DNA of 64,000 nt from Spirochaetales bacterium (GCA_030615505.1 JAUWZD010000002.1:2436-66435); one strand, 5' to 3'; positions 13,113 through 33,107 are shown, numbered from the stretch's first letter. Notes: generated from the letters alone by a model not told the origin. Translations and numbers: made by a program.

Positions 13113-13783
13113 TATACCCATATACCAAGAGGGCAAAATGTCCTGCAAACGGTATTCAAAGAACATTTTGATGATTTCAGAGAAGTGTATGATGAGAAAT
13201 ATTCAAAAGCATACGGCAAATATCGTATTGATAGAATTAAAGAAGTTGTAGAAGAATTCATAAAATTCGGAGACTATAAAGAAGGTCTTGCTAGAATAAA
13301 ATCCACAGGATGAAACCATGTACCAACCCTGACTGCGGTCATCCACAGGATGCCCGCTGGGTGCCCGCAGGGTGAAACCAAAACCATGATTATTTTGTTC
13401 CCCTATCCTGCAAGGGATTCTATCTATGTCCGTCTTGTCATCAGAAAAGAACCCTCTTGTTTGCAGAACAGATCACACAAGAAGCTCTCTTAAGGCTTCC
13501 GCACAGACAGTGGGTTTTTTGTATTCCCAAGTGCCTTCGAGTGTTTTTCAAGCATGACAGAATGCTGTTCTCCGATATATCCAGGTTGATCTTTCAGATG
13601 CTCCAATCCTACTATGATAAGGTTTTAGCTAATTCTATCCAAACCGGCGGCACCCTGGACGGATCATCCGGATGGGCACATGACATCGAGCAACCCCGCA
13701 CGTACTACGAGAACTCATGCGTTTACTTGAAGTCCTTGTGTCGGGCAGTTCCCTGTGTAAAGCTCATTCAAATGATTGTTTGA
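13113..13783 (+). pseudogene. IS91-family (rolling-circle, HUH Y2) transposase N-terminal fragment. It has no start codon, is interrupted by two repeat-element insertions, and is truncated after the zinc-binding/N-terminal domain.
   Basis: Translation gives FKEHFDDFREVYDEKYSKAYGKYRIDRIKEVVEEFIKFGDYKEGLARIK, then [insert] CTNPDCGH [insert] DYFVPLSCKGFYLCPSCHQKRTLLFAEQITQEALLRLPHRQWVFCIPKCLRVFF. This matches the conserved IS91-family N-terminus (GF-RvrC-CG-SCK-CPSC...HRHWVFTlP). Confidence 0.7.
13302..13386 (+). repeat. Repeat-element copy A. A 17-bp short form (13302–13318) and a 45-bp long form (13342–13386) flank 23 bp of transposase coding sequence.
   Basis: TCCACAGGATGAAACCA, and TCCACAGGATG CCCGCTGGGTG CCCGCAGGGTG AAACCAAAACCA. 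Deleting both restores the transposase reading frame. Confidence 0.7.
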
Positions 13784-13945
13784 AGGGAGCAGAACATGGG
13801 CAAGCAATTCGAACTGTTCGAAGCGGAGGAGAGACATTGGATCGACAGACTGTGGCAGTCGATGCCGCCGAAAGCACGGGGCGAGGTAATCGGAATTAGT
13901 ATCATCTTCTTGACGTATGTGGGATCACCGGTACTCTGATAGCCG

Positions 13946-15213
13946 ATGAGGAAGGTTCCACAGGAGAAATGGCATACGCTTTTGAAAGATCATCACGAGG
14001 GCTATATCTCATGGGAGCAGTTTGAAATAAACCGAAAACGCATCGGGTCGAACGGGCGGCCAGGAAAGGGCCCAGGAGCACCACGGGAGGGGGATGGACT
14101 TCTGCAAGGGATCATTCTCTGCGGACGCTGTGGAAGAAGGATGAGAATCGCTTACGGAAAAGGCTCCAGGCCGACCCATTATAGCTGCGCACAAGCGCGC
14201 AAGCAAACAGGTGCTCCGGTGTGTCAGAGTTTTGGAGCACGCCGGCTGGAGCAAGCAGTGGAAGGACTCTTGTTGGATTGCCTGTCACCGCTGGGCGTAG
14301 AGGCTATGCTGGAAGCGGCGAAGGTGTATACCGAGGATAACGAGGTGGAACGGACCCGATGGAAACAAAACATCGAGAGAGCACACTACGAGATGAATCT
14401 CGCTCGCCGGCAGTATGATGCGGTGGATCCAGAGAATCGGCTTGCCGGAAGGTCCCGACCTTGGGGTTGCTCGGGAGCTGGAAAGACGGTATGAAAAGGC
14501 ACTTAGAGCCATAGAAGAGATTGAGTCGGAAGCGTATTGCCCGATGTCTGATCGAGAACGTAGTGGTAACCTCACCGCGAGAAGGCACAATGCTTATAGC
14601 CCAGGTGCACTGGAAAGGCGGCGAGGTTACAAAGCTCGATGTACTCAAGGGCAAGAGTGGCATTCACCGTTATGTGTCGCCTCTTGAACTCGTTGAGTTA
14701 ATACGTACGCTGGCAACTGAGTTTTCAGACATCCAGATCGCACGCATTTTGCACCGCAAGAGACTGAAGACACCAAAGGGTCGGCCTTTCATGGCTTACC
14801 ATGTAGCCAACGTGCGAAATAAATATAACATTCCTAAGGGTCTACGGGTGCCACTACGAGGGGAAGACGTCTATACGGCAGAAAAAGCAGCAGAACTGTT
14901 GGGTGCCTGTCGAAGTACAATTATCCGGTGGTTAGAAGTTGGCTTGCTACGCGGTTCACAATTGACATCTGGAGCTCCGTGGCGTATCGTAGTAACCAAA
15001 GAGGACATCGAAAGGCTAAAACCGAATGAGGTTGGTGAAGGTAGGTATCCGCTTAAGGGAGCGGCTTCGGCCTTAGGGGTGAGCCAGCAGACCGTTTTGC
15101 AAAAGGTTAAGTCGGGAGAGCTTGAAGCCATTCGAGTGCGAACAGGCAGGCGTGTAGGCTGGAGAATTCGTTTACCCATAAGCATTTACGACAATCAACC
15201 AGCCTTGTTTTAA
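13946..15213 (+). pseudogene. Large serine recombinase, C-terminal two-thirds, split over three frames by frameshifts. The catalytic resolvase domain is absent.
   Basis: Recombinase domain and zinc beta-ribbon (LLQGIILCGRCGRRMRIAY...YSC). A coiled coil in frame 0 (ELERRYEKALRAIEEIE). A C-terminal segment in frame 1 with two excisionase-type HTH motifs. Frames 2, 0 and 1 meet at about 14415–14687. Confidence 0.65.
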
Positions 15214-15232
15214 TGGTTTTATGATTTTGTAT

Positions 15233-15586
15233 CTAAAAGGCTTTTTCCTTAAAATCTCTAAATGTTATTATCTCGATCCTTTTAAACGGATTTAAAACAA
15301 GTAAATCTTTATCACCTGTTATTATATAATCAGCTCCTCCATTTACGGCAGTTTCTAAAATAAAATTATCCTTAACATCTCGACACGCATTTACTCTTTG
15401 CTTTATTTCAACTTTAATACTCCACCTTTGCAGCAAGCGTAACAGAACTAAACGTCTTCTTTTAATAATATATTGTTGAAGTTTAGGCCTTGTAATTACT
15501 CTGAATAATTCGTTAAGCTGCTTCCGGGATGTTAATATTAGCAGATCTTTACTTTCTATTGCATTTTCGAACTCTACTACCTTCAC
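15233..15586 (-). CDS. PIN-domain toxin-like protein (PIN_3-like). It is N-terminally short and may lack the first catalytic Asp.
   Basis: C-terminal DNFILETAVNGGADYIITGDKDLLVLNPF matches the PIN_3 consensus. GTG start, with an in-frame stop 5 codons upstream. Confidence 0.5.
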   Translation of the reverse strand: MKVVEFENAIESKDLLILTSRKQLNELFRVITRPKLQQYIIKRRRLVLLRLLQRWSIKVEIKQRVNACRDVKDNFILETAVNGGADYIITGDKDLLVLNPFKRIEIITFRDFKEKAF

Positions 15587-15800
15587 GATACATCTTCTCT
15601 CTTACTGCTTCAACTTCTTCTGTTATCTCTTCAAATGTAACAGGAATATCTTTTAATTCTTCCTTGACCCTGCTCCACTGGGCAAATAATGTTTTATCAT
15701 CCAGATACTCTGCTAATTTCTCCTGTTCATCAAACGGGAGCTGGTCAATAATATTTTTCACCTGATTAAAATCCAAGTCTATTTTCAAATTGACAGACAT
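15549..15800 (-). CDS. Putative antitoxin partner of the PIN protein.
   Basis: 83-aa acidic ORF directly upstream, overlapping the toxin start by 38 nt. No family recognised. Confidence 0.35.
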   Translation of the reverse strand: MSVNLKIDLDFNQVKNIIDQLPFDEQEKLAEYLDDKTLFAQWSRVKEELKDIPVTFEEITEEVEAVREKMYREGSRVRKCNRK

Positions 15801-15945
15801 ATGTTTCTCCTTCTTCTGTTAATATACAGTATTTATTGTTCTTTTTCTATTCCTTTGCTTTCCTGCCTGATTTAACTGTCAAGAGGCTAGTACTTTTAGG
15901 GAGCGCTTTCAGATAGATAGGTGATGAGGATATTCCCACTCCGCC

Positions 15946-18285
15946 TTAAAACACCTTCTCTAAGACTTCTTCCATACGGTTCACGGGGTGAAACTGAATC
16001 CCCTTTTTTATATGTCCAGGTATCTCTTCAAGATCCTTCTCATTCTGACCGGGAATAATGATCTCCTTAATATTATTTCTCTTTGCAGCTATTACTTTTT
16101 CTTTTAATCCGCCTATGGGGAGAACCTGTCCGACCAAAGACAGCTCTCCTGTCATGGCCAGGGATTTTTTGATCTTCTTTTTTCTTACTAAAGAGAGCAG
16201 ACAGGAAGCCATGGTGATTCCGGCTGAAGGGCCGTCCTTAGGGGTCGCACCGGCGGGGACGTGAAGATGTATCTGATTGTTCTCAAAAAACTCGTGTTTT
16301 ACGCCGAAGTCTTCTGCAATATGCCGTACATAGGTGTAGGCAATATTAGCGGATTCCTGCATGACATTTCCAAGCTGACCGGTTAATCGAAAGCCTTCCT
16401 TTCCGGGATTGGCCACTGCCTCCACAATAAGAATCTCGCCTCCCATTTGAGTCCATGCCAATCCAATGGCCATACCTGGCCTGGTTATCTTTTTAATCCC
16501 CTCTTCAAAAAAGATTGGTTTCCCGAGATATTTTTCCAATTCCTCCTTGGTGATGATTAGCGGTAAAGAGATATTTTCCAATATCACCTGCTTAGCTACT
16601 TTACGATGAATTTTATCCAAAGCCTTTTCATAATTACGAAGACCCGCTTCCCGTGCATATCCTTCCGCTATTTGGAGCAAAGCCGGTTTTTCATATTTTA
16701 TATCAGATCTTTTAATGCCGGTACGCCCTAAGGATTTTGGAATGAGGTATTTTTTTGCAATCGTCATCTTTTCTGAGTTTATATATCCCGAGAGGCGGAT
16801 CACTTCCATGCGGTCTAAAAGCGGGGCCGGTATGGTGTCCACTGTATTTGCCGTGGTCAGGAACAGGATATGGGAGATATCAAAGGGAAGATCCAGGTAA
16901 TGATCACGGAAGGCTACATTCTGTTCGGGATCCAGGACTTCAAGGAGAGCGGATGAGGGATCGCCCTGAAAAGAAACTCCCAGTTTATCGATCTCGTCGA
17001 TCATAAAAACAGGATTCTTCACCTTTACAATTTTCAGGCCCTGGATAATTTTTCCCGGCATGGCCCCAACGTAGGTTCTCCTGTGGCCTTTAATCTCGGC
17101 CTCATCTCTCATTCCTCCCACTGAGAACCGGAAGAATTTTCTGCCTAAGGCCCGAGATATGGATTTCCCCACTGAGGTTTTGCCCACTCCCGGAGGTCCC
17201 ACTAAACAGACAATGGAGCCCTTGGTGTCTTTCTTGAGCTTTCTTACAGCAAGGTATTCTAAAATTCGTTCCTTAACATCTTCAAGCCCATAATGATCCG
17301 CCTCCAGTATTTTTTGAGCCCGTTTCATGTCGATGGCTTCTGGTTTTGGATTATTCCAGGGGAGAGAGATGATGGTTTCTAAGTAATTTCTGGTAACTAT
17401 GAATTCCGATGAGTTTGCATCCATTAAGGAAAACTTCTCCAGTTCCTGCTCAACCTGCTCTGCCACCTCTTTCTCCAGTTTAAGCTTGCTGACTGCTTCC
17501 TTGAACCTTAAATATTCACTGCTCTTAGAATCAACAGGCATACCTAGTTCGGATTTTATTGCCTTGAGCTCTTCTTTAAGGAAATATTCCCTCTGGCTCT
17601 TGGTAATTTTCTCCTGGATCTGTTTCTGGATCTTCTTCTGAATGCTAAGAAGCTCCTGTTCTTTCTTGATAAAAATTAACGCCCTCATCATGCGCTCGTG
17701 CACGTCTACAAGCTCTAGAATCTTCTGCTGTTCCATTCTGTCAATATTAAGTATTGAGGTGATGAAATCGGCTATTTTTCCCGGGTGGTCGATGTTCACC
17801 ATATTCAGGCGCATCTCTTCTGAAAAGAGGGGATTATTTTCCGAAATCTGTTTCATTTCGCTTATCAGGGATCGAGTAAGGGCCCGGACTTCATCTGTCT
17901 CAACATTCTCGTCTTCCAGATAGTTTACGGCTACGCCTATGGGATTTTCCTTATGTATAAACTTCTTGATACTGAAGCGCTTCAGTGTCGAAATAAAGAG
18001 ATTGACCCCGCCGTCCGGCAGGTTTATCTTCTTAATAATCTTAACAGCTGTGCCGATTGTGAATAGATCATCCCCTGACGGGTTTTCAACCTCTGGAGAA
18101 CGGGTAAGAACAAGACCGATAAAGCCGTCGCTGGATATTGATTTTTCCACTATCTTCACATCATCTTCAGTTAGGATCATAAGTGGCATGAAAATACCGG
18201 GGAAAATGGGCTTTCCCGTGATTGGAATTATATATAATTTATTTGGAAGCACCTGGGATGTGGGCACAATCTGTTTGTCAGGCAT
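15946..18285 (-). CDS. lon: ATP-dependent protease Lon.
   Basis: LON N-terminal domain, AAA+ Walker A GPPGVGKTS, and S16 protease Ser in PKDGPSAGITMASCLLSL. Confidence 0.95.
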   Translation of the reverse strand: MPDKQIVPTSQVLPNKLYIIPITGKPIFPGIFMPLMILTEDDVKIVEKSISSDGFIGLVLTRSPEVENPSGDDLFTIGTAVKIIKKINLPDGGVNLFISTLKRFSIKKFIHKENPIGVAVNYLEDENVETDEVRALTRSLISEMKQISENNPLFSEEMRLNMVNIDHPGKIADFITSILNIDRMEQQKILELVDVHERMMRALIFIKKEQELLSIQKKIQKQIQEKITKSQREYFLKEELKAIKSELGMPVDSKSSEYLRFKEAVSKLKLEKEVAEQVEQELEKFSLMDANSSEFIVTRNYLETIISLPWNNPKPEAIDMKRAQKILEADHYGLEDVKERILEYLAVRKLKKDTKGSIVCLVGPPGVGKTSVGKSISRALGRKFFRFSVGGMRDEAEIKGHRRTYVGAMPGKIIQGLKIVKVKNPVFMIDEIDKLGVSFQGDPSSALLEVLDPEQNVAFRDHYLDLPFDISHILFLTTANTVDTIPAPLLDRMEVIRLSGYINSEKMTIAKKYLIPKSLGRTGIKRSDIKYEKPALLQIAEGYAREAGLRNYEKALDKIHRKVAKQVILENISLPLIITKEELEKYLGKPIFFEEGIKKITRPGMAIGLAWTQMGGEILIVEAVANPGKEGFRLTGQLGNVMQESANIAYTYVRHIAEDFGVKHEFFENNQIHLHVPAGATPKDGPSAGITMASCLLSLVRKKKIKKSLAMTGELSLVGQVLPIGGLKEKVIAAKRNNIKEIIIPGQNEKDLEEIPGHIKKGIQFHPVNRMEEVLEKVF

Positions 18286-18312
18286 ATTTTACCTCTTATC
18301 TTTGTAATAGAA

Positions 18313-18339
18313 ATTATAATCCTCCCGGGCAGATGTCAA
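18313..18339 (-). promoter_or_regulatory. Sigma70-like promoter candidate for lon.
   Basis: Minus strand has TTGACA, a 15-nt spacer, then TATAAT about 25 nt upstream of the lon ATG, with SD AAGAGG. Confidence 0.4.
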
Positions 18340-18431
18340 GTTAATATGTTTCGGACAATTGCGGTCTTAGACTGCGATTGGATGGAGCATATTGCTTTGC
18401 CTGGGCTTTCTAAACTATTATACTAAAAGCG

Positions 18432-19187
18432 ATGTTCAGGAATTCCACCACTTTAGCTATAGTGCTCCGTAAGGTCCGAATCGGGGAGATTCATAAAAGA
18501 TTGACAATGCTGACCCCGGAAGCAGGCATGATCAGTGCCATGGCTCACGGCGCCTGTAAGATCAAAAGCCGCTTCAGAACCCTGTCGGAACCTTTTGGCT
18601 ATTTAAGAGTCTATCTTTACCATGATCCTGTAAAAGATCAGTATAAAATTACTGATATGGAGAGCATCGATCCGTTTGAGAGTATTCGAAAGAGTATTGT
18701 TAAGATTTATACTGCTTCTCTGTGGGCTGAGGTTGTTTTAAAAGCTTTTGGCGGTGGAGAAAGCTCAGGCAGCCTTTTCCGCCTATTTTCAAGCTCACTT
18801 AAAGCCTTGAATGAATCCCGTGAGGGAAAGGAGATAATGGTATCGATACAGTTTCTCTTTAGATTTCTATGCTTAATGGGATTCAGCCCGGTGCTTGAGA
18901 CCTGCAGTCAGTGTGCCTCGGCTTTTAAAACCAATGAACCAAGCTTCTTTTCCAGCCGGGATTTATCTTTTCTCTGTTCTCGCTGTGCCAGGCTTAAATC
19001 CATTATACTGCCTGCAGGAGGACGGCGATATTTGGCCAAAACCTCCACCCATTCCCTGGGCAAAGCGCTCAAGGTAGGATTGGAAGATGATTCGGTACGT
19101 GCTTTGAAAGAGGTGCTATATCAGCTCGTACAGGGCGTTTTAGAAGTGAATCTCAACTCCATTAAATCAGGCTCGGGTATTCTATGA
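18432..19187 (+). CDS. recO: DNA repair protein RecO.
   Basis: N-terminal OB-fold region (LTPEAGMISAMAHGACKIKSRF, LSEPFGYLRV) and a C-terminal zinc finger CSQC...CSRC. Confidence 0.65.
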   Translation: MFRNSTTLAIVLRKVRIGEIHKRLTMLTPEAGMISAMAHGACKIKSRFRTLSEPFGYLRVYLYHDPVKDQYKITDMESIDPFESIRKSIVKIYTASLWAEVVLKAFGGGESSGSLFRLFSSSLKALNESREGKEIMVSIQFLFRFLCLMGFSPVLETCSQCASAFKTNEPSFFSSRDLSFLCSRCARLKSIILPAGGRRYLAKTSTHSLGKALKVGLEDDSVRALKEVLYQLVQGVLEVNLNSIKSGSGIL

Positions 19188-19735
19188 GAGTTTTTGCCGC
19201 ACTGCCGATTCCTGAAGCAGTAATCAGCGCCCTCACCGGGGTTGCTGGGACTCTTAAAAAACATTATCATCGTTTGAAAGTGATAAAGCCACAGGGTATT
19301 CATATTACTCTTCTCTTTTTCGGGGAATTAAGTGAAGAACGGATACAGCCGATTATGGAGATCATGGAAAGCCCTGATTTGCATATTGAGAGGATTAAGG
19401 CATCTTTAGGCCCTATAGGCTGTTTCCCTGTGCGGGGAAATCCCAGGGTGATCTACTGCCGTATCGAGGCGGGAAAGGATCAAATTACCGCTTTTTATGG
19501 AAAATTCTATGCTATGGTAAAAAAGTTGAGTGGCCACTATATTAATAATGAGAAGGATTTCATTCCACACATTACCCTGGCCAGAAACAAGTATGAAAGG
19601 ATAGATGCCGGGGTATTCAAGCATCTGCCTGAATTGAAGCAGTCATTCACTATTGACAGCTTTGTTCTCTTTCAATCTATCCTCAAGCCCCAGGGTGCTG
19701 AGTATAGGCCTTTGAAGACCGTGAAATTCCGTTAG
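19184..19735 (+). CDS. thpR: RNA 2',3'-cyclic phosphodiesterase (2H phosphoesterase, LigT/ThpR).
   Basis: Two H-x-T-x motifs (HITLLF and HITLAR). Confidence 0.8.
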   Translation: MRVFAALPIPEAVISALTGVAGTLKKHYHRLKVIKPQGIHITLLFFGELSEERIQPIMEIMESPDLHIERIKASLGPIGCFPVRGNPRVIYCRIEAGKDQITAFYGKFYAMVKKLSGHYINNEKDFIPHITLARNKYERIDAGVFKHLPELKQSFTIDSFVLFQSILKPQGAEYRPLKTVKFR

Positions 19736-19743
19736 GGGCCAGC

Positions 19744-21054: not shown

Positions 21055-23171
21055 TATGGGAAAAAATTGAAACAGACCCCGATGAAGTAAGGGAGATCGC
21101 CAGACAGAACGATCTTGACCTGATCTCCTCATCCATACTGATTAGAAGGAATTTAACGGACAGCCGTTCCCTACGTTTCCTGCTCGAGGATGATCTGCTT
21201 CTCCTTCACAATCCCTTTTTGTTCCGGGATATGGAGAAGGCGGTAAACCGTGTAAACCGCGCCATAGATCGGAAAGAGAAGATTATGGTTTTCGGCGACA
21301 GGGATGTAGACGGCATTACATCAACCGTTTTACTGGTCCAGCTCATAAGGGATTTAAGCGGCAGGGTTGAGTGGAAGCTTCCCGGGGAGAATGAAGACTA
21401 TGGGCTCACTCGCCAGGTAATTGAGGATTCGTCTGCCTCTGCCTGCAGCCTGATAATTACAGTAGATTGTGGAATCTCAAATATCGATGAAATAGCCTTA
21501 GCCAGGGAAAGAGGAATAGATACAGTGGTCATAGATCATCATATTCCACAGGATACGCTTCCTGAGGCCGCGGCAATAATAAATCCGAAACAGGCGGGAA
21601 GTACCTACCCGTTCAGAGATCTTGCAGGATGCGCTGTGGCTGCGAAATTTGCCTGGGCTGTGGTTTTCTCAAGCACGCCAATGTACGGCAAACCTGTGTG
21701 GCTTTTAAATATTAAACCGGACAACGAAACCTATTCTGTAGAAGCTGTAAAACTTGTGAACCTGGTGGAAAGAGAGCGCCTGGTTTTAAGTCTGCTTCCC
21801 GAACTTTCAAGCTCGCAGAAAAAACGGCTTTTACCCCTGATGTCGGCAGATGATATTGTAGTTTATGACTCAGCCGGCATGAGGAAACTTATAGACAGAA
21901 TAGGATTAGGTGCTGAGAACCTGAAGCTTACGGATATTCGTCCAATGGTAGGAAAATTCTTTCCGGATTTAGAGGGTAAGAGCCTGCTTAAAATCAAGAG
22001 CCTGATAAGGCCGGCCCAATATGGAAGCCGGGGCTCCGGTGAGCTTGATATGCTGATCAGCCTCCATAATACTGTTATACTGAAACAGGAAAATGCTCTC
22101 CTATCAAAGCAGAATTATTTTATGGATCTGGCGGCCTTAGGTACCCTGGCCGATTTGATGCCCTTAGCTGATGAGAATAGAATCATCGTGAAGAGGGGAT
22201 TGGAAGTTTTAAATCAGATGGGACGCCACGGCCTGCGCGAACTCATTATAAAACAGAGGCTTTACGGAAAGAGAATTACTACCACGGATGTTACCTGGCA
22301 GATTACACCGGTGCTTAATGCCGCCGGAAGGATGGGTGAGCCGGAAAAAGCAGCCTCTCTACTGCTCTCAAATGATCCACATGAGGTTGAAGAACTGGTG
22401 GATTATATTCTCGATCTGAATAGAAAACGAAAATATCTGGGAGATAATGTCTGGAAAAGATGTTTTACCCGGTTCAAAGAGAGCCTCGATAAGGCTGATG
22501 GGAAGTTTATCCTGGTCTATGATCATTCAATTCCAAGAGGAATAACCGGGATCCTGGCCTCCAGATTAATTAATTATTTCAAAGTTCCGGCCATAGCCAT
22601 TGCCGTAAGCCATGATAAAGCTGTCGGTTCTCTTCGCAGTCCGTACTCGCTAGAAGGATTTCTAGATCATTATGCCGATCTTTTTCTAAATTACGGCGGT
22701 CATGATTGCGCGGCAGGTTTCAGCCTGGCCAGTTCCATTATTCCCGAATTTGAATCGAGATTTTACAGGATGATAAGGGAACTTAATCCTCCCGATCATA
22801 GTGGAGAAAAATTGATCATCGATGCTGAGGTGCCTCCCGACTACCTCAATCCAAATTTAATCAGTGTTGTAGAGCTTTTTGAGCCTTACGGAGAAGGCAG
22901 CCCTGTCCTAATTTTCTTGACCCGGCAAGTTAGGATTGAAGCACTGGATATCATCGGTAAAAGCGGTATGTCCCACCTGAAGCTGCTTATCGGAGCCGGG
23001 AAATACAGATGGCCGGCAATTTACTGGAACGCGGCGGAAAGAGCCGGAAAGGATTTTACGGTTCACGACACTGTAGATATCGCATACCGACTGGCAAGAA
23101 ACTATTTTCAGAATACAGAAACCCTTCAGCTTACTATTTTAGATCTGAAACCATCCACAGGATGCCCATAG
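21051..23171 (+). CDS. recJ: Single-stranded-DNA-specific exonuclease RecJ. Its last 6 codons are supplied by repeat element B.
   Basis: DHH motifs (FGDRDVDGITS, VVIDHH) and DHHA1 (GGHDCAAGF). Confidence 0.9.
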   Translation: MIWEKIETDPDEVREIARQNDLDLISSSILIRRNLTDSRSLRFLLEDDLLLLHNPFLFRDMEKAVNRVNRAIDRKEKIMVFGDRDVDGITSTVLLVQLIRDLSGRVEWKLPGENEDYGLTRQVIEDSSASACSLIITVDCGISNIDEIALARERGIDTVVIDHHIPQDTLPEAAAIINPKQAGSTYPFRDLAGCAVAAKFAWAVVFSSTPMYGKPVWLLNIKPDNETYSVEAVKLVNLVERERLVLSLLPELSSSQKKRLLPLMSADDIVVYDSAGMRKLIDRIGLGAENLKLTDIRPMVGKFFPDLEGKSLLKIKSLIRPAQYGSRGSGELDMLISLHNTVILKQENALLSKQNYFMDLAALGTLADLMPLADENRIIVKRGLEVLNQMGRHGLRELIIKQRLYGKRITTTDVTWQITPVLNAAGRMGEPEKAASLLLSNDPHEVEELVDYILDLNRKRKYLGDNVWKRCFTRFKESLDKADGKFILVYDHSIPRGITGILASRLINYFKVPAIAIAVSHDKAVGSLRSPYSLEGFLDHYADLFLNYGGHDCAAGFSLASSIIPEFESRFYRMIRELNPPDHSGEKLIIDAEVPPDYLNPNLISVVELFEPYGEGSPVLIFLTRQVRIEALDIIGKSGMSHLKLLIGAGKYRWPAIYWNAAERAGKDFTVHDTVDIAYRLARNYFQNTETLQLTILDLKPSTGCP

Positions 23172-23221
23172 GGTGCCCACAGGGTGAAACCAAAACCAAA
23201 ACCATCCACAGGATGAAACCA
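23154..23221 (+). repeat. Repeat-element copy B: a 51-bp long form plus a 17-bp short form in tandem, inserted between recJ and the M23 peptidase gene.
   Basis: TCCACAGGATG CCCATAGGGTG CCCACAGGGTG AAACCAAAACCAAAACCA, then TCCACAGGATGAAACCA, then TG. Confidence 0.75.
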
Positions 23222-24300: not shown

Positions 24301-24515
24301 TTTATATAGCTGCAATTACTGTAGGAGAAGATGAAGTTCTTGATAAGGCAATTAAGCGCTTCAAGCGAATGATTGAGAAAGAAGGCGTTATAAGAGAGTG
24401 GAAGAGAAGAGAGTTTTTCGAAAAGCCTTCTACAATTCGAAATAGAAAAAGAAAAGCTTTAGAGAGAAAGCGCTTAAAAAAAATGCGTAAAATCCATTCT
24501 TTTAAAAGATATTGA
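24297..24515 (+). CDS. rpsU: 30S ribosomal protein S21.
   Basis: [18 protein letters not shown]...[17 protein letters not shown] matches S21. GTG start overlaps the peptidase stop. Confidence 0.8.
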
Positions 24516-24525
24516 TTGAGTGCAT

Positions 24526-24554
24526 AAAGAGGTCTTTTAAAGACCTCTTTTTTA
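24526..24554. terminator. Rho-independent terminator between the convergent rpsU and ABC-ATPase genes.
   Basis: 11-bp perfect stem AAAGAGGTCTT / AAGACCTCTTT with loop TTAA, followed by a T-run. Confidence 0.6.
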
Positions 24555-26058: not shown

Positions 26059-26810
26059 TTTTCTTCAATTTCAGTGTAGGTGGGTGTGTTCAGGACCTTT
26101 TTAAGGCCCCGATTTATGGCTTCCAGCACCTCAGTGTTTCCCTTTTTAACGACAATGCCGTAGTACTCATCGGTGAAGGGTTTGCCGACGATCTTCAGCT
26201 TTCCCTTATAATTCTCATTCTGAAGTGCAAAATCGGCGGCCACGGGGGTGTCGGCCACGCATCCATCGATCCTTCCGTTGACCAGGTCCATAAAGGCGAG
26301 TCCTATCTCATCATAGGTCTTCAGATCTACTCCGGAAACCTCTTCAATGGCAAACGAGCCTGTAGTGCCGATCTGGGCGCCTACGGATTTACCCTTCATG
26401 TCTTCCAGCGTCTCCACCCCCTCGCTTTCGGTACGGACAATCAGAACCTGACCGGCGTTGATATACGGGTCAGAGAAATCCATGGTTTTCTTTCTTTCCT
26501 CCGTGATGGTTACTGAGGACATGACAGCATCGTATTGTCCGGCAGGAAGTCCGGCAAAGATGCCGTCCCAGGCTGTGTTCTTAAACTCCATCGTGAAACC
26601 GCCCGCTTCAGCGATGGCATTCATTAGATCAATATCGAAGCCCACAATTTCCTTGTTCTCATCTACCATCTCCATGGGGGGCCATGTAGCATCCGTGGCA
26701 ACTACAATATGGAGCTTTTCAACCTTTTCTTCTTTCTTAGCACATCCTGTCATGAGCAGTCCGGCCACTGCGGCCAGGATAACAAATAAAAGAATCGTCT
26801 TTTTCAGCAT
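26046..26810 (-). CDS. Amino-acid ABC transporter substrate-binding lipoprotein (family 3 SBP).
   Basis: Signal peptide with lipobox (LMTGC). SBP_bac_3-like sequence. Confidence 0.85.
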   Translation of the reverse strand: MLKKTILLFVILAAVAGLLMTGCAKKEEKVEKLHIVVATDATWPPMEMVDENKEIVGFDIDLMNAIAEAGGFTMEFKNTAWDGIFAGLPAGQYDAVMSSVTITEERKKTMDFSDPYINAGQVLIVRTESEGVETLEDMKGKSVGAQIGTTGSFAIEEVSGVDLKTYDEIGLAFMDLVNGRIDGCVADTPVAADFALQNENYKGKLKIVGKPFTDEYYGIVVKKGNTEVLEAINRGLKKVLNTPTYTEIEEKWLR

Positions 26811-26880
26811 AGAAGCCTCCTTATTAAATATAAATAATATATTAGATCATAATAGAATTGAGGTCATTGTCAAGTCAATC

Positions 26881-26940
26881 TACAGGGTGCCCACAGGATG
26901 CCCGCAGGGTGCCCACAGGGTGAAACCAAAACCAAAACCA
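26881..26940 (+). repeat. Repeat-element copy C (60 bp) in the divergent intergenic region upstream of modA.
   Basis: TACAGGGTG CCCACAGGATG CCCGCAGGGTG CCCACAGGGTG AAACCAAAACCAAAACCA, then TGG. Confidence 0.75.
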
Positions 26941-27003
26941 TGGAAAGTTTAAAAGAATTGCAACTCAGTTGCATAAATTTATTTTAACAGATATACTCAA
27001 ATT

Positions 27004-27744
27004 ATGAAGGATAGAATAATAATACGCAGTTTTGCCTGGTTATTAGCTTTAATGTTGTCCATCTCCACTATACAGCCCCTTCAGGCCGATGCCGATGTAG
27101 TGGCCGTTGCAGCGGGTATTGCTCCCTGCGTGGAGGAGGTTATGCAGGCCTTCATTGATCAGGGCGGAGAACAATTGCAGATGGTAAAGGGAGCCTGCGG
27201 CCCCCTGGCACGACAGATGGCGGCAGGAGCACCTTACGACCTGCTGCTTGCATCGGAGCCGCGCTGGCCGAACTGGCTGAAAGAAAAGGGTGTACTCCCC
27301 AATCTAATCGTTTTTGCCATAGGACAACTTACGTTATGGCACGATAAGGCTGCTCCTCCTGAGCTGGCTATCCTTAAGGGGTCGCTGGTAGCTGTGCCGG
27401 AACCGGAGACAACAGCCTACGGAATGCTGGCAAAGGAATACCTGATCCGGGAAGGACTGTGGAGAGATGCCCTGGAAGGCAAGAGAATAATCTTCTTAGG
27501 AAGCGCTCCCCAGGCAGTGCTGGCGGTTCGCCATGGAGCTGCTGCAGCTGCCTTCATTCCCCACAGTATGGCAATAAAAGCAAAGGGAAGCTGCCTGATT
27601 ATCCCTGGAGCAGTAATAGATCAGGTGGGGGGACTTCCACTGAAAGCTGGAAAAAGCGCTGGAGATTTCTGGTCCTTCTGCCGTTCCCGCAAAGCTGAGC
27701 CCATATGGCGCAGGTGGGGCTTTAAACCGGTGCAGGTTGAGTGA
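27004..27744 (+). CDS. modA: Molybdate/tungstate ABC transporter substrate-binding protein.
   Basis: Signal peptide, ModA-like length and motifs, and context with modB and modC. Confidence 0.75.
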   Translation: MKDRIIIRSFAWLLALMLSISTIQPLQADADVVAVAAGIAPCVEEVMQAFIDQGGEQLQMVKGACGPLARQMAAGAPYDLLLASEPRWPNWLKEKGVLPNLIVFAIGQLTLWHDKAAPPELAILKGSLVAVPEPETTAYGMLAKEYLIREGLWRDALEGKRIIFLGSAPQAVLAVRHGAAAAAFIPHSMAIKAKGSCLIIPGAVIDQVGGLPLKAGKSAGDFWSFCRSRKAEPIWRRWGFKPVQVE

Positions 27745-27750
27745 GGCTAA

Positions 27751-28395
27751 ATGAAACAGGCTCTAATCATAAGTCTAAAGGTGCTGGCCGTGGATATGCC
27801 CCTGCTGTTTCTACTCGGTACTGCCATTGGATGGATTTTGGCTAAGAAGCGCTTTAAAGGCAGGGAAATTCTCTCCCTGCTTGTACTGCTTCCTGTCGCC
27901 CTTCCACCATCTGTTCTGGGCCTCTACCTGCTTATGTTCATAGGGCATGTACCTTTTCTAAAGCATCTGGGATTGCTGTTCTCCTTTCCTGCCGCCGCAC
28001 TGGCGGCTTTGGTGCCTGCGCTTCCAATCATGATTCAGGCAGCTCGTTCCGGCTTTGCATCTGTGCCTGAGGAGCTTGAGGATGCAGCCAGAACTCTGGG
28101 CGACGGTGAGTGGCGTGTTTTCCGGCGGGTAACACTATTGCTCAGCCGGCGTTCCCTCGTGGCGGGACTGGCTTTAGCCTCAGCACGAACCTTAGGAGAT
28201 TTCGGTATTACACTCATGATTGCAGGCAACATCCCCGGCAGAACACAGACACTGCCGCTATATATATTCAGCCAGATGGAAGCGTTGGAATTTGCCAAAG
28301 CCAACCTGGCAGCAGCCTTGCTGGTTGTCGTGGGAATTGTGAGTCTGGCCTTGGTAAAACGCATGGAGGAGGGCAGGTATGAGCGCCTGGTTTGA
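27751..28395 (+). CDS. modB: Molybdate ABC transporter permease.
   Basis: 5-TM CysT/ModB-type permease of 214 aa. Confidence 0.8.
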   Translation: MKQALIISLKVLAVDMPLLFLLGTAIGWILAKKRFKGREILSLLVLLPVALPPSVLGLYLLMFIGHVPFLKHLGLLFSFPAAALAALVPALPIMIQAARSGFASVPEELEDAARTLGDGEWRVFRRVTLLLSRRSLVAGLALASARTLGDFGITLMIAGNIPGRTQTLPLYIFSQMEALEFAKANLAAALLVVVGIVSLALVKRMEEGRYERLV

Positions 28396-29494
28396 AGCAT
28401 CCCTGGACCATCAGGTAGGGGAATTCAGGCTTCAGATAGACCTCTTTCTGGAAAGAGAAATTGGAGTGCTATTCGGTCCCAGCGGCTCAGGGAAAAGCCT
28501 CACTCTGAGATTGCTTGCCGGACTCGACACCCCTAAACGCGGGCAGGTGCATCTGGGAGGACGACAGCTTCTTGAGGTGCCGGGCGGCATTATTCAGCCC
28601 CCCCGGCAGAGGAGGATCGGGCTGGTATTTCAGCAGCTTGCCCTCTTCCCTCACTTGAATGCACTGGAGAACGTGGCCTACGGACTTTCCGGGAGCAGAC
28701 GGTATGACATCGCACGGGAATGGCTGGCCAGGGTAGATCTTAAGGGCATGGACCAGCGCTATCCGGCACAGCTCTCGGGTGGACAGAAACAGAGGGTGGC
28801 TCTGGCCCGGGCGCTGGCGCCGGAACCGGATCTGCTGCTCCTGGATGAGCCTTTCAATACCTTAGACAGCCCCTTAAGAAGAAGCCTGCGAAGGGAATTA
28901 AAGCGTCTTCACCGGGAGACAGGAGTACCCCTGCTCTATGTTACTCATTACATTGAGGATGTCTGCTCTATGGGAGGCCGTATATTTTTCCTCAAAGATG
29001 GACAGCTTACAGGAAACATCAATGTAGACCAGCTATGGAACACCAGCTCTCAAGTCGGGGCCTGGCATGCCCTGGGCTGGGGGAATCTGCTCCACGGTGA
29101 GGTATGCCGGAGGGAGGGGGGCACATGGTTCGTATGGGGGGAGGGTGCCCTGGAGCTGCCCGCATCTGTACAGATCATGGGACCTGTATCGGTCTTTATT
29201 CCCCCGAATCATGTAAAGATTCTATACCAGGATATTCCGGTGGATCCGCAGCTTGTCCCGAACGTGATGCATGGGCGTGTGGTGGAGAGAGTCTCAATAG
29301 GAAGCACTACAAGCCTCTATGTAGCTGCTGCAGGATTGCAGTGGCAGTTGGAATTTCCCATTAAATCCTATGATCGTCTCGACCTGAAGGAGGGAGCTGA
29401 TGTGCGCATTGCAGTGAGGCCGGGATCTATTTCCCTTCTTGAGCATGACAGAGGAGGATCTGAATATGAAAATACGAATACTGCCCCTGGATGA
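28379..29494 (+). CDS. modC: Molybdate ABC transporter ATP-binding protein with a C-terminal TOBE domain.
   Basis: Walker [13 protein letters not shown], signature LSGGQKQRVALARAL, and a C-terminal Mo-binding beta domain. Confidence 0.85.
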   Translation: MSAWFEASLDHQVGEFRLQIDLFLEREIGVLFGPSGSGKSLTLRLLAGLDTPKRGQVHLGGRQLLEVPGGIIQPPRQRRIGLVFQQLALFPHLNALENVAYGLSGSRRYDIAREWLARVDLKGMDQRYPAQLSGGQKQRVALARALAPEPDLLLLDEPFNTLDSPLRRSLRRELKRLHRETGVPLLYVTHYIEDVCSMGGRIFFLKDGQLTGNINVDQLWNTSSQVGAWHALGWGNLLHGEVCRREGGTWFVWGEGALELPASVQIMGPVSVFIPPNHVKILYQDIPVDPQLVPNVMHGRVVERVSIGSTTSLYVAAAGLQWQLEFPIKSYDRLDLKEGADVRIAVRPGSISLLEHDRGGSEYENTNTAPG

Positions 29495-30488
29495 GGCACT
29501 GGGGCTTCGCCTCTCCCATGACCTCACCCAGATCGTCCCGGAAACAGGTTACAAGGGGCCCCGCTTTAAGAAGGGGCATGTTGTAACAGAGGAGGACGTA
29601 CCCACCCTGCGCACCATGGGCCGGGAGCACCTCTCCATTATAGAGATTAGCGAGGATGAAGTACACGAGGATGAGGCGGCACTGAGGCTCTCTGAAGTGC
29701 TGGCGGGAGAAGGTATGGAAGTAAAGGGTCCCAGTGAAGGCAAATGTGTTTTAGTTGCCTGTAGAGACGGCCTGCTTATATTTGATGAAGATATGGTCAA
29801 CCGGGTGAATGATGATCCTGAGTGGATTCTCGCCACACTTCCACCAAAGGTGCCGGTACACAAGGGGGAGCAGGTGGCGGCCTTCCGCATACGTCCTCTG
29901 GTTGTGCAGGAAGAGCAGGTGGCACGGGCTGAGAAAGCGGGCAGGAGCATTAACGTTCTCCCCTTCCTTCCTTTGAAAGTGGGACTTGTAACCACCGGCA
30001 GGGAGATTGCCGATGGACGCATTAAGGACACATTCCGGCCCAGGATGGAACGCAAGGCGGAGCGCTTCGGAGGAACATTGCTGGGACAGAGGATCGTGGC
30101 GGATGATAAGGATGAAATCTGCCGCAGCATTTCAACTTTCTTAGAAGAAGGCGCAGAACTGATTATTTGCACAGGAGGTATGAGTGTTGATGCTGACGAT
30201 CTTACACCTGCTGCGATCAGTGACGTATCTGATAAGGTGCTTTTCCATGGGGTTCCCTCCCTGCCGGGTTCTATGCTCATGCTTGGTGTAAAGGGAAGGG
30301 CGGCTATAGTAGGAGCCCCGGCTTGTGTCGTACATGACGAATGGACCACCCTTGACCTGCTTCTCCAGCAGCTCTTTGCAGGCCTAATACCGGCCATAAG
30401 AGAAATACGAAGATGGGGAGTCGGCGGGCTCTGCCGCCGCTGTGAAGTCTGTATCTATCCGAACTGTGCTTTTGCCCAACGCCCATGA
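29439..30488 (+). CDS. MoeA-like molybdopterin-binding protein (MoeA_N plus MoCF_biosynth domain) with a Cys-rich C-terminus in place of MoeA_C.
   Basis: LVTTGREIADGRIKD and ICTGGMSVD motifs. C-terminal CRRCEVCIYPNC. Likely start at ATG about 29466 (MKIRILPLDEAL). Confidence 0.6.
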   Translation: MSMTEEDLNMKIRILPLDEALGLRLSHDLTQIVPETGYKGPRFKKGHVVTEEDVPTLRTMGREHLSIIEISEDEVHEDEAALRLSEVLAGEGMEVKGPSEGKCVLVACRDGLLIFDEDMVNRVNDDPEWILATLPPKVPVHKGEQVAAFRIRPLVVQEEQVARAEKAGRSINVLPFLPLKVGLVTTGREIADGRIKDTFRPRMERKAERFGGTLLGQRIVADDKDEICRSISTFLEEGAELIICTGGMSVDADDLTPAAISDVSDKVLFHGVPSLPGSMLMLGVKGRAAIVGAPACVVHDEWTTLDLLLQQLFAGLIPAIREIRRWGVGGLCRRCEVCIYPNCAFAQRP

Positions 30489-30919
30489 CAGCAGAAGAAA
30501 TCCTTACAAAGGCCGGCGTGCGCCCCACTCATGTGCGGGATGCGGTTCTGAAGCGCCTCTATGAAGCAGGATGCCCGCTCTCACATGGAGAGATTGCAGC
30601 GCACCCGGGAATGAAGCGTTATGACCGGGTAACAATCTATCGCACTCTTTATACTCTTGAGGGAGCAGGGCTGGTTCACACCGTGCAGGGAATAGACGGG
30701 GCCTGGCGCTTCTGTGCACATCCTCCGGACCGTACAGGATGCCCCGGAAATCATCCACACTTTCTCTGCCTTAAGTGTGGGAAGATGCAATGCCTCACAG
30801 GGCAGCGCCTCCCCTGGGTAGAAGTGCCCGAAAGAGTTAGGGTAAAGGGAAAACAGTTGGTGATCTACGGGATCTGCACGGCCTGTGGTACGGCAGAGGA
30901 AAGGAATAAAAACAAATGA
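30485..30919 (+). CDS. Fur-family transcriptional regulator embedded in the Mo cluster.
   Basis: Winged-helix N-terminus (RPTHVRDAVLKRL), HPHFLCLKCG and CTACG metal-site motifs. Confidence 0.75.
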   Translation: MTAEEILTKAGVRPTHVRDAVLKRLYEAGCPLSHGEIAAHPGMKRYDRVTIYRTLYTLEGAGLVHTVQGIDGAWRFCAHPPDRTGCPGNHPHFLCLKCGKMQCLTGQRLPWVEVPERVRVKGKQLVIYGICTACGTAEERNKNK

Positions 30920-31668
30920 CTATACTAAAGAAAGCGCAGAAACTATTTATTCAGGTTCTTATGAAGAAAAATATTTCTTTAGATGAACATATAGCCGCAG
31001 AACCCCTCGGGGTAGAGGAAGCATTAGGTGATCCGTCTCCGTATAAGGACTTTGCCTTACAGAGGGGAGTGGAGAAGCTCGTTGAGGTGAAATACAGGGA
31101 GGCTCGAGGACAGGCATTCACCTCATGCCCCCTTCGATGGAAGGGAACTTTAGGGGAGGTCCTGGATCTTCCCCTTGAGAGTGACAGGGAAAGAGCTCTC
31201 CTTGTAGCATCGATGAACGCAGTGGGGCGCTGTCTGGATCTGGCGGATAAAACTGTACACTGTAAGGATGATGGACCGGAGCGCTGCGGCAAAAAGATGG
31301 CTGCGGAACTGGTGGAGAAGTATGGTATGGACCAGGTTATTGGGATTGTCGGTTATCAACCGGCCCTGCTGAAAAACATAGTAAGCCGATTCGGGCCGGA
31401 GAAAGTCCGTACAGCAGACCTCAACCCCGAAAATATTGGCAAAGTGGCCTGCGGTGTGCCGATTTGGGACGGCGAAAAAGATCTTGACCGTATTGCAGAA
31501 GAATGCTCCCTGTGCATGGCAACAGGTTCCTCTCTTTCAAACAACACATTAGACAGAATTTTGGAGGCTTTCTGCAGAAAAGATAAAAAAGTGATCTTTT
31601 ACGGCACTACAATTGCGTTTCCCGCTGTCCTTTTGGGTCTTGACCGGCTCTGCTTCGAATCGAAATGA
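30916..31668 (+). CDS. Hypothetical Rossmann-like protein, possibly DUF364/DUF4213 (putative metal chelation).
   Basis: GIVGYQP glycine-rich motif. Context with Mo genes. Family assignment is tentative. Confidence 0.35.
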   Translation: MTILKKAQKLFIQVLMKKNISLDEHIAAEPLGVEEALGDPSPYKDFALQRGVEKLVEVKYREARGQAFTSCPLRWKGTLGEVLDLPLESDRERALLVASMNAVGRCLDLADKTVHCKDDGPERCGKKMAAELVEKYGMDQVIGIVGYQPALLKNIVSRFGPEKVRTADLNPENIGKVACGVPIWDGEKDLDRIAEECSLCMATGSSLSNNTLDRILEAFCRKDKKVIFYGTTIAFPAVLLGLDRLCFESK

Positions 31669-31779
31669 TACCCTTGAGGCCCGCCGTTGGCATTTTAAGG
31701 GATTGAAATTGCTATTTGCAGAATATACAGCAAAATTTTACCTGGTAAAGCGGCCTGAACAGGCAAGGCAGGGAGCTTC

Positions 31780-32577
31780 ATGTTAGACAGATTTGACAGG
31801 GAAATAAATTATCTTCGTATATCTGTAACTGACAAATGTAATCTGCGCTGTGTGTACTGTATGCCGGAAGAGGGTGTTCCGCTGCACCGGCATGATGATT
31901 TTTTAAGTCTCGAAGAAATTACGCAAACGGTTAAGGCGGGTGTCAAGCTGGGTCTTACCAGGATCCGCTTAACCGGTGGCGAACCCCTGGTTAAGCGGGG
32001 TATCGTGGATCTGGTCGGAATGATAAAAGGTGTTAAAGGTGTTGAGAGCCTTGCCATGACCAGCAACGGTACTTTAGTAGAAAGGATGGCGGGAGAATTG
32101 AAGAGGGCGGGCTTGGATAGTATGAATATTTCACTGGATACGCTGGATCCGGCACGCTACCGGAAGATCACCCGTATCGGCGATATTCAATCTGCCTTGC
32201 GAGGGATAGAAGCCGCGCTTAAGGCAAGATTCCCGCTCAAGCTCAATATGGTCGTATTAAATGATACTGGTGCTGAAGAGGTAAGGCAGATGAAGCGCTT
32301 CTGTGCTCAAAAAGGGATCAAACTCCAATTGATCAATCACTATTCTCTGACTGAGGAGAAGATGAATAATTACCGGTATGACCGTCCCCCCGATTGTGCC
32401 AACTGCAATCGTATCCGCATGCTGGCCGATTGTAAACTGAAGCCCTGCCTCCACTCCAATATAGAGATAAAACTGGATTTAAATAATATCGAATCTTCTC
32501 TAATCAAAGCTATCGAGTATAAACCTGAAAGAGGATCTGTCTGTTTAAACAGGCAAATTGTTGAGATTGGAGGCTAA
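31780..32577 (+). CDS. moaA: GTP 3',8-cyclase MoaA (radical SAM), short form.
   Basis: CNLRCVYCMPEEG radical-SAM cluster and a C-terminal CANCNRIRMLADCKLKPC cluster. 265 aa. Confidence 0.85.
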   Translation: MLDRFDREINYLRISVTDKCNLRCVYCMPEEGVPLHRHDDFLSLEEITQTVKAGVKLGLTRIRLTGGEPLVKRGIVDLVGMIKGVKGVESLAMTSNGTLVERMAGELKRAGLDSMNISLDTLDPARYRKITRIGDIQSALRGIEAALKARFPLKLNMVVLNDTGAEEVRQMKRFCAQKGIKLQLINHYSLTEEKMNNYRYDRPPDCANCNRIRMLADCKLKPCLHSNIEIKLDLNNIESSLIKAIEYKPERGSVCLNRQIVEIGG

Positions 32578-32581
32578 AATC

Positions 32582-33034
32582 ATGAAATTTAGCCATCTGG
32601 ATGAAGAGGGTAGGGCCGTTATGGTGGATGTTTCCCATAAACCTAAAGTAAGGCGAGAGGCTACTGCTTTCGGTAGAGTGTACCTCAGACCGGAAACGAT
32701 TCAACTGATCAGAAAGAGCCTTATTAAGAAGGGAGATGTTCTAACTGTAGCCAGGATTGCTGCCATAAGCGGAGCCAAAAGAACGGCAGACCTGATCCCC
32801 CTCTGCCATAATATTACAATCGATCAGGTTGATATCGATTTTACGGTTGCGGAGGAGGCAGTTGAGATACGGAGTTATGCAGTTTGTACCGATAAAACGG
32901 GAATTGAAATGGAAGCGCTTACAGCTGTCTCCATAGCGGCCTTAACGATCTATGATATGTGTAAAGCTGTTGACAGATCTATTAAGATATCAGATATCCG
33001 GCTGCTGGAAAAAACCAAAGATGAGCCAATTTGA
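32582..33034 (+). CDS. moaC: Cyclic pyranopterin monophosphate synthase MoaC.
   Basis: MoaC family sequence (LIPLCHNI). Start at ATG 32582 with a GGAGG SD, directly after the moaA stop. Confidence 0.85.
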   Translation: MKFSHLDEEGRAVMVDVSHKPKVRREATAFGRVYLRPETIQLIRKSLIKKGDVLTVARIAAISGAKRTADLIPLCHNITIDQVDIDFTVAEEAVEIRSYAVCTDKTGIEMEALTAVSIAALTIYDMCKAVDRSIKISDIRLLEKTKDEPI

Positions 33035-33074
33035 GGTCCTTTATGCTCTTAACCCATAAGATTTTATTATTTTG

Positions 33075-33087
33075 TCCACAGGATGAA
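33075..33087 (+). repeat. Partial (13-nt) copy of the repeat-element 5' end (TCCACAGGATGAA) upstream of the MOSC gene.
   Basis: Exact 13-mer shared with copies A and B. Confidence 0.4.
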
Positions 33088-33107
33088 GACACATAAATTT
33101 TAGTCAA

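Follow-up and report, generated by a model that had tools for sequence, protein, structure and literature searches.

The window, a 64,000-nt stretch of DNA from a Spirochaetales bacterium (GCA_030615505.1 JAUWZD010000002.1:2436-66435), contains five complete copies (E1-E5) of a repeat element 17-62 nt in size, all of them on the + strand and co-oriented with the downstream gene. E1 (13302..13318) and E2 (13342..13386) lie within the N-terminal remnant (13125..13650, + strand) of an IS91-family transposase gene (Zn_Tnp_IS91/Y2_Tnp type), E3 (23154..23204) and E4 (23205..23221) abut in tandem between recJ and an M23 peptidase gene, and E5 (26879..26940) occupies a divergent intergenic region between two solute-binding-protein genes. 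The shortest form of the element also occurs in other genomes; that at least four lineages carry it at an identical codon boundary of their IS91-like genes is, on the sequences compared, the new observation reported here. The source organism is spirochaete-like, the best named RecJ relatives being encoded by Spirochaetaceae/Spirochaetales metagenome-assembled genomes (MAGs; ~50% identity) and the closest match (69%) by a subsurface metagenome.

Anatomy of the repeat family

The copies share the general architecture (YCYRYWGGRTG)n + (AAACCA)m, in which 11-nt units, head-to-tail in a single orientation and without linkers, are completed by a tail of AAACCA hexamers; n is 1, 3, 3, 1 and 4 and m is 1, 2, 3, 1 and 3 for E1, E2, E3, E4 and E5, respectively. 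The minimal form E1 (17 nt) consists of the usual first unit TCCACAGGATG and one AAACCA, and E4 (17 nt) likewise of one unit and one hexamer. E2 (45 nt) is composed of TCCACAGGATG, CCCGCTGGGTG and CCCGCAGGGTG followed by AAACCAAAACCA (2 x AAACCA), E3 (51 nt) of TCCACAGGATG, CCCATAGGGTG and CCCACAGGGTG with 3 x AAACCA, and E5 (62 nt) of the variant first unit TCTACAGGGTG with CCCACAGGATG, CCCGCAGGGTG and CCCACAGGGTG, again with 3 x AAACCA. An earlier note, made from the window sequence alone, had listed at least four copies within 20 kb and a 17-bp minimal form, and both descriptions hold; the tail it had written as GAAACC(AAAACC)1-2A is better represented as (AAACCA)1-3.

Matches to CCCRCAGGRTG with at most one mismatch number 17 in the window against 3.07 expected, a count reached in 0/100 shuffles, and the 17-mer of unit plus tail was observed five times, exclusively on the + strand, with ~0.0005 occurrences expected. 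A general repeat search recovered it as the sole real dispersed repeat family in the window (family D1). A probable decayed copy forms a sixth site at 33075..33091 (+; TCCACAGGATGAAGACA), in intergenic DNA upstream of a MOSC-domain gene: it matches exactly over 13 nt and then diverges, with two mismatches, no proper tail and next bases other than TG, and at up to three mismatches about one chance match is expected. An exact copy of TCCACAGGATG at 987-997 (- strand), in frame within a DUF1638 gene (DHPVDD), is most likely a coincidence. At 981-997 (-), this 11-mer is followed by ATCCCTG, with which it forms a short palindrome.

The multi-unit copies did not fit several simpler origins. AAACCA is not a target-site duplication, since it is absent from the left flanks of E1, E2 and E5, and the arrays cannot have formed by nested insertions that each contributed one unit and one tail, because E2 has three units but two tails and E5 four but three. 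A simple tandem repeat (variable number tandem repeat) arising by local duplication, the possibility that the earlier note had raised against its own proposal, does not account for four separate loci in the window together with matching loci in unrelated contigs.

Comparison of 22 units suggests that the 11-mer is a conserved mini-hairpin with a variable loop, consisting of a 3-bp stem (YCY-NNN-RGR) followed by TG. Positions 2 and 8 are C-G in 22/22 units, positions 3 and 7 are C-G in 20 and T-G in two, and positions 1 and 9 are C-G in 12, T-A in eight, T-G in one and C-A in one (Fisher P = 2e-4), while the loop reads ACA in 16, GCA in four, GCT in one and ATA in one, and positions 10-11 are TG in all 22. 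If structure matters at all, the hairpin would be a feature of single-stranded DNA or RNA that is read by a protein. Searching the window with Rfam 15 recovered a tRNA-Met alone at the gathering score, and E-value scans of the element regions yielded noise; derivation of the ...ACCA end from a tRNA 3' end was also considered and rejected, as this only tRNA in the window is unrelated.

Insertion sites and coding consequences

E1 interrupts the transposase gene between codons (ATA AAA ^ TGT), and E2 lies 23 nt 3' of it in codon phase 2 (ca^t), where it introduces an in-frame TGA. In silico deletion of E1 (17 nt) and E2 (45 nt) joins ...GLARIK | CTNPDCGH | DYFVPLSCKGFYLCPSCHQKR... into a protein with one continuous Zn_Tnp_IS91 match (profile positions 8-89 of 90), and the CGHDYF motif spanning the E2 site is contiguous in homologues; the earlier proposal that removal of two copies restores an intact coding sequence is thus confirmed. 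The host is nevertheless judged to be a pseudogene because it is truncated in any case: transposase homology stops ~90 codons past the insertions. Directly after the remnant follow fragments of a large serine recombinase (13946-15213; Zn_ribbon_recom, then an open reading frame (ORF) with HTH_17), and the region at 11.9-15.9 kb, which has no long ORFs, resembles a mobile-element graveyard.

At the second locus, E3 provides the last five codons and the TAG stop of the present recJ, whose relatives terminate at ...LDLK plus 1-4 residues (e.g. Q/K/R/QP), and the last A of E4 completes the ATG of the M23 peptidase gene, with the AGGA of E4 placed 7 nt upstream. Without E3 and E4 the site reads ctg aaa ccA^TGA gat, a four-base ATGA stop/start overlap, and a syntenic relative (L139; recO-ligT-pynP-recJ-M23-rpsU) has a GTGA overlap and an empty site. 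This native site, cTGAAACCA^TGA, resembles the tail of the element itself. In the same relative, a CCGAAGGTGCCCACGGGG module was observed outside insertion sequence (IS) genes, and a CCGAAGGTGCCCACGGGGTAGGGGG module (minus strand) lies at a junction between rpsU and a solute-binding-protein gene (L139:6290-6330) where an ABC ATPase is truncated and the permease is missing.

E5 is followed by an ATG, completed by the element, and an ORF of 15 codons (MESLKELQLSCINLF; 26940-26987) that lies 17 nt before the annotated start region of the SBP_bac_11 gene (27004). It is possible that this ORF encodes a leader peptide, or that it is meaningless.

Target duplication was absent at all of the ~8 sites inspected. 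All four independent sites in the window are cut immediately 5' of TG, which, at a TG frequency of 0.064 in the window, has a probability of ~1.7e-5. The TG of the A^TG flank described in the earlier note is supported at these sites, but the left flank is not A everywhere: it is G at the IS91 site of other genomes and C at a locus outside IS genes (L072), and the 3' flank is TA there and at a second such locus (L032), with TG at the other sites. At the IS91 site the upstream flank is AATAAAA^ in the window and CATCCAG^ in the other genomes, and the downstream flank is kept by the codons of CxNPxC (^TGYACCAAYCCTGA). Conservation of the 5' flanks does not extend beyond YA^ on the bottom strand or ^TR on the top strand. 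A target resembling the reverse complement of the element 3' of the cut was considered and found not significant (P = 0.22 per site).

Placed between codons, the 17-mer reads TCC ACA GGA TGA (S T G stop) and, in the downstream frame, an overlapping ATG AAA CCA (M K P); C/G variants retain this layout (..GGG TGA / GTG AAA CCA), and the [A/G]TGA stop/start overlap is kept in all 17-mer variants. Three units between codons form an open insert of 15-17 codons, two shift the frame, and four behave like one. Placed before TG, the final A generates an ATG that is preceded, at a distance of 7 nt, by AGGA or AGGG. The earlier note had drawn attention to this Shine-Dalgarno (SD)-like motif and start codon, which were indeed found, although the TGA stop overlapping an ATG/GTG restart is the more striking property. 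Stop/restart and SD plus ATG would together make many insertions tolerable. Several copies are clearly damaging, as exemplified by the in-frame TGA of E2 and by a HAAS domain cut by the L072 copy.

The same insertion in other genomes

A scan with YCCACAGGRTGAAACCAWR of one genome per species (185,579 species, with the source genome not among them) gave 64 loci, roughly as many as chance alone would produce, of which seven are real: five in IS91-like genes and two outside IS genes in one MAG. A second scan, with CAGGRTGAAACCAAAACCA over JGI metagenomes, gave 45 loci including two real ones (L089 and L095), both at the IS91-like site and with a two-hexamer tail. Viral genomes yielded 18 loci, all attributable to chance, BLAST of the 62-mer against plasmids and phages produced tail-like chance matches only, and 5.8 billion proteins contained no candidate for either open-frame translation of the three-unit element.

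In all five IS-borne loci of the genome scan, the 17-mer (TCCACAGGATGAAACCA or CCCACAGGGTGAAACCA) is situated at the ...ARIQ ^ C(T/I)NP(D/E)C... boundary. They belong to a MAG labelled Planctomycetota (L020), a complete Spirochaetaceae chromosome (L051) and Spirochaetales or Spirochaetaceae MAGs (L078, L079 and L080); one further locus (L131), reached via a protein match beginning VKPC, carries CCTGCAGGGTGAAACCA at the same boundary. The host genes encode Y2_Tnp and Zn_Tnp_IS91 domains and are usually a single ORF of ~445 aa in which ARIQC is contiguous, even in proteins 80-84% identical to the L080 copy. The copies in L020, L089 and L095 additionally contain several frame-breaking micro-insertions and point stops. 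Among other insertions in IS91-like genes we noted 21-mers at L131:2890-2910 (GCCGAAGGTCCCCGCCAGGGG) and L132:2937-2957 (TCGACGATGCCCGCCAGGGTA), and a double hairpin of 53 nt, which occupies one and the same P^M site between codons in L132 (~3033-3085) and L133 (~505-560, a minus-strand IS copy).

Empty and filled alleles of the IS91 site can be compared directly. The empty L133 and the filled L020 are 95% identical in the flanks, and the 17 nt are their sole difference at that point; the empty L134 is 89% identical to the filled L078 and 87% to the filled L131. Filled copies of different clades share 46-84% identity in the same flanks and fall into at least four IS91 lineages (Spirochaetota, the Planctomycetota-labelled MAG and metagenomes). 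That filled copies are closer to empty ones than to each other points to repeated gain or precise loss, which implies either repeated hits or an old insertion precisely lost in some lineages, and in both cases a process that is specific and exact; gene conversion over very short tracts may also have operated at this site. Precise insertion without target duplication that is recent relative to the hosts, as put forward in the earlier note, is supported at the DNA level at the IS91 site by these alleles and at recJ/M23 by relatives, and the empty sites that it proposed to look for were found both here (L133, L134) and at the recJ/M23 site of L139.

Both copies outside IS genes belong to the Spirochaetaceae MAG CAZERV01, where they lie at or near contig ends (L032 and L072), compared with five to six copies in 20 kb of the window and none at the recJ/M23 site of L139. 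The L072 17-mer lies in a PadR-HAAS-DUF4097 operon, where it interrupts the DUF1700-type HAAS gene between two codons (...KKEIL | STG* and MKP | YDYEEHF...) and severs the HAAS domain after residue 26; once reconstructed, the gene yields an uninterrupted HAAS match (profile positions 1-54 of 55).

The remainder of the window contains no complete copy of the element. In the region 34088-58200, a tRNA-Met gene (34088-34160) and a gene for a tyrosine integrase (34256-35431) precede a minus-strand prophage encoding Mu Gp48-like, Baseplate_J, GpP baseplate hub and DNA_circ_N proteins, as well as major capsid E, S49 protease, lambda-type portal and gpA terminase. Copies are absent from this prophage half of the window (34-64 kb), which fits a repeat that accumulates in resident DNA and is expected of recently arrived DNA. 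Cumulative GC skew turns at ~35 kb, corresponding to the prophage boundary. Separately, tandem CAATCAA/CAATCAT units occur at ~6420-6450 within a 2045-aa ORF, and are probably variable or repeated, since a Logan contig (L137) ends there.

Mobility and competing explanations

With moderate confidence, we interpret the family as non-autonomous, very small insertion elements resembling repetitive extragenic palindromic (REP) sequences and small dispersed repeats (SDRs), probably moved by an enzyme of the HUH type acting on single-stranded DNA. The single orientation, the exact insertion without target duplication, the 3' flank of one or two bases, the hairpin, the ACCA^TG tandem and the tail-like native site at recJ/M23 all point towards such an enzyme, and REP/RAYT, IS200/IS605 and IS91/Helitron systems are those whose single-strand handling is most like the behaviour of the element. 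The functional module would be the 11-nt unit (mini-hairpin plus TG) completed by the AAACCA tail; a HUH-type transposase, either a RAYT/IS200-like Y1 or an IS91-like Y2 enzyme, would mobilise it in trans via single-stranded DNA hairpins and insert it in one orientation, exactly and without duplication, immediately 5' of T(G/A). The numbers of 11-mers and AAACCA hexamers would probably change later by slippage, and the ACCA^TG junction of an existing copy could receive a new one, which would produce tandems such as E3-E4. Copies would then survive where they do little harm, namely in intergenic DNA, in genes that are dead or redundant (IS copies, for example), at the starts of genes, since the end of the element (SD-like AGGA/AGGG + 7 nt + A) could rebuild ribosome-binding site and ATG, and between codons, where TCC ACA GGA TGA would stop translation and the overlapping ATG/GTG AAA CCA restart it.

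Several observations weigh against this interpretation. No mobilising gene was identified in the available DNA, which includes no RAYT, and no Y1 gene is present among the ORFs scanned in the 64 kb of the source genome; the earlier note had suggested searching for a HUH gene, and one does exist in the window, but it is the disrupted IS91-like remnant, a pseudogene and the host of the element. Nor is there a transposase near the L032 or L072 copies. Almost no copies lie outside IS91-like genes in the 185,579 species genomes and the JGI metagenomes, and the copy count for the source genome covers 64 kb alone. A simple N^TG rule does not account for the repeated hits on a single codon boundary, and we know of no element as short as 17 nt with demonstrated HUH-mediated movement. 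Folding energies are indistinguishable from those of shuffled sequences (z -1.7 to +1.8), the 3-bp stem being very weak, and much of the stem covariation may simply reflect two unit types inherited by descent, because the two stem types mostly coincide with 'first' and 'later' units.

Among known systems, REPs and the bacterial interspersed mosaic elements (BIMEs) built from them share several features with the family: they are short, GC-rich, dispersed hairpin repeats without coding capacity, sometimes arranged in mosaic arrays, sometimes located in genes, where orthologues can carry them at one site, and able to donate stop codons. REPs are GTAG/CGTC-tagged palindromes of 20-40 nt (PMC3733652) that are thought to be mobilised by RAYT (Y1 HUH) transposases (PMC3733652; PMC3116915), and GTAG REPs occur within genes, recur at one site of orthologous genes and donate stop codons (PMC3733652). 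The window unit, by contrast, is 11 nt long, with a loop of 3 nt on a 3-bp stem, carries an A/C-rich (AAACCA)n tail, and is found at gene starts or inside genes rather than downstream of genes; GTAG/CGTC is absent from E1-E4, and only the first unit of E5 (TCTACAGGG) holds CTAC. Unlike in BIMEs, the units form direct tandems, never inverted pairs, and have no conserved linkers.

Composite GC-rich arrays were found on the minus strand in intergenic DNA (L020:1850-1975) and in an IS gene (L089:1560-1690), and likewise in an IS gene of L095; the L020 and L089 arrays contain the modules GATGCCCGCTAGGGTA, CCGAAGGTSCCCGCAGG, TGTCTTCATCCCCGCAGG... and GTAGATGCCCGCAGGGTAGGGTGA, some of which are GTAG-tagged like REPs. 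The GTAGATGCCCGCAGGGTAGGGTGA module of L020 shares the 14-mer GATGCCCGCAGGGT with E5, and GTAG adjoins this core in L020, which, together with the REP-like habits, places the window family in a larger population of REP-like modules. By its sequence, the family is thus clearly REP-like, though in size, tag and lack of inverted pairing it falls outside the formal definition of REPs. The earlier note had excluded REP and BIME; this stands as far as formal membership is concerned and does not extend to the evident kinship with GTAG-flanked modules.

Small dispersed repeats of Nostocaceae, which Elhai and colleagues reportedly described in 2008 with sizes of 21-27 nt and which are mentioned in PMC5861425 and PMC2884548, provide a parallel in scale: like the window family, they are far below the size of MITEs (miniature inverted-repeat transposable elements), appear mobile, and have precise insertions that become visible when otherwise identical sequences, including copies of other mobile elements, are compared; their lineage-restricted abundance may also have a counterpart in the window family. 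The presence of the 17-mer in L020, L078 and L131 and its lack in the near-identical L133 and L134 is such a comparison. The window family differs in phylum, in its unrelated sequence, in a shorter minimal form (17 nt), in its unit-plus-tail modules and 3' flank of TG/TA, and in the stop/restart property. Classical MITEs, with terminal inverted repeats and target-site duplication, are unlike the elements, which lack both. Palindrome-associated transposable elements (PATEs) derived from IS200/IS605 are also unlike the 17-nt form, which has one mini-hairpin only and no fixed 5' tetra- or pentanucleotide. Rickettsia palindromic elements (RPEs; ~100-150 nt) are translated in frame, and the 'byp' elements of yeast mitochondria are bypassed via matching take-off and landing codons. 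RPEs, yeast mitochondrial GC clusters and 'byp' elements resemble the window family as small GC-rich hairpin elements tolerated in protein-coding genes, but the 17-mer breaks the frame and creates a stop/restart junction. In the literature, keyword searching recovered no prior description of the element, and the 11-mers used as search words matched primers only.

An alternative that we consider unlikely, though worth attention, is that the IS91-like transposon itself carries the element as a parasite or as a passenger with a regulatory role, and that its Y2 transposase would copy the mini-hairpin and tail as a minimal origin or terminus. Its primary home would then be the ARIQ^C boundary, where it splits the N-terminal helical part from the zinc-binding domain, and all other copies would be spill-over. 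IS91-like Y2 enzymes are attractive as mobilisers because the habitat is shared: seven of the nine real public loci are in IS91-like genes at one fixed position, and the 53-nt double hairpin also recurs at a fixed site of two IS copies. Eukaryotic Helitrons, to which IS91 is related, begin with TC, integrate between an A and a T and have a hairpin near the 3' end, ends that resemble the A^TC...hairpin...^T of the element. IS91, IS801, ISCR and Helitrons share with it the absence of target duplication, orientation specificity, mobilisation in trans and a hairpin near one end. The IS91 family has been described as acting in trans, with duplication-free insertions and miniature derivatives (PMC3189936). 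However, IS91/IS801 require a tetranucleotide target (GTTC/CTTG, GAAC/CAAG; PMC3189936) that is not seen at the element junctions, and known derivatives, the smallest of which is an IS801 derivative of 229 nt (PMC3189936), retain the right end (ori) of the IS, which the element lacks. The ends and 3' region of the host IS, where alignable, are unlike the element, and derivation from it by deletion was accordingly rejected. Furthermore, the complete Spirochaetaceae chromosome CP070696.1 has an IS-borne copy and no second match to the 19-nt pattern, and the majority of filled IS copies have decayed to pseudogenes in which several micro-insertions break the frame.

A related and somewhat more doubtful proposal is that a 17-nt stop-restart element homes site-specifically into IS91-family genes, at the point where the N-terminal part meets the zinc-binding one, by a duplication-free mechanism that would be new for an element of this size, acting either as a hyperparasite or as a host-side means of disabling or regulating the transposon. 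The number of units would then switch the host gene between a split (one or four), a frameshifted (two) and a linker-fused state (three).

We consider it distinctly improbable that the element is instead a cassette selected by the host, that is, a portable signal for translation initiation or coupling, or an array of 11-bp protein sites, spread by recombination or gene conversion and kept at gene starts for its SD motif, start codon and stop/restart junction. The common orientation of the window copies with their downstream genes, the AGGA + 7 nt + ATG that E4 gives to the M23 gene, the ATG following E5, the [A/G]TGA overlap retained in every 17-mer variant and the stop codons donated by GTAG REPs located inside genes (PMC3733652) would agree with such a role. 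Disruptive copies do not, including E2 with its in-frame TGA, the L072 copy that cuts HAAS, and the frame-breaking insertions of L020 and L089; moreover, the same operon is expressed in the relative L139 with no element in it, flanking differences expected from gene conversion were not seen, and the in-frame three-unit version is missing from the 5.8 billion proteins. Finally, that the interrupted genes remain functional through removal or skipping at the RNA or translation level (a mini-intron, programmed bypassing or frameshifting) is highly implausible: exact removal restores each reading frame, as it would after any precise insertion, and the take-off codon AAA of E1 is matched by a tail AAA in frame with the downstream codons, but other genomes have CAG as the upstream codon and lack a landing codon that would match it in the right frame, no consistent landing codon, slippery heptamer, stable structure or Rfam match was found, and the host genes decay independently.

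These elements have practical consequences for the reading of such genomes. They break short-read assemblies, with Logan contigs of run SRR14872670 (L001) terminating inside E3 and inside E5, and they generate annotation artefacts in the form of false gene splits, extended C-termini and spurious starts, as seen in the five additional codons of recJ and in the transposase and HAAS genes, each of which is called as two ORFs.

The combination of a 17-nt minimal form, a unit-plus-tail architecture, a stop/restart design and a recurrent, exact target in IS91-family genes across phyla is unusual, and the family is apparently among the smallest mobile elements seen. If mobile, elements of 17-62 nt would lie at or below the size of the smallest described mobile repeats (~21-27 nt) and would bear on the minimal sequence that transposition needs. 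The exact codon boundary that recurs in IS91-family genes of several phyla offers a concrete and testable target, and this recurrence suggests an interaction between a micro-element and a transposon, in which the element may be a parasite or a regulator of the transposon, or the transposon may serve as its graveyard.

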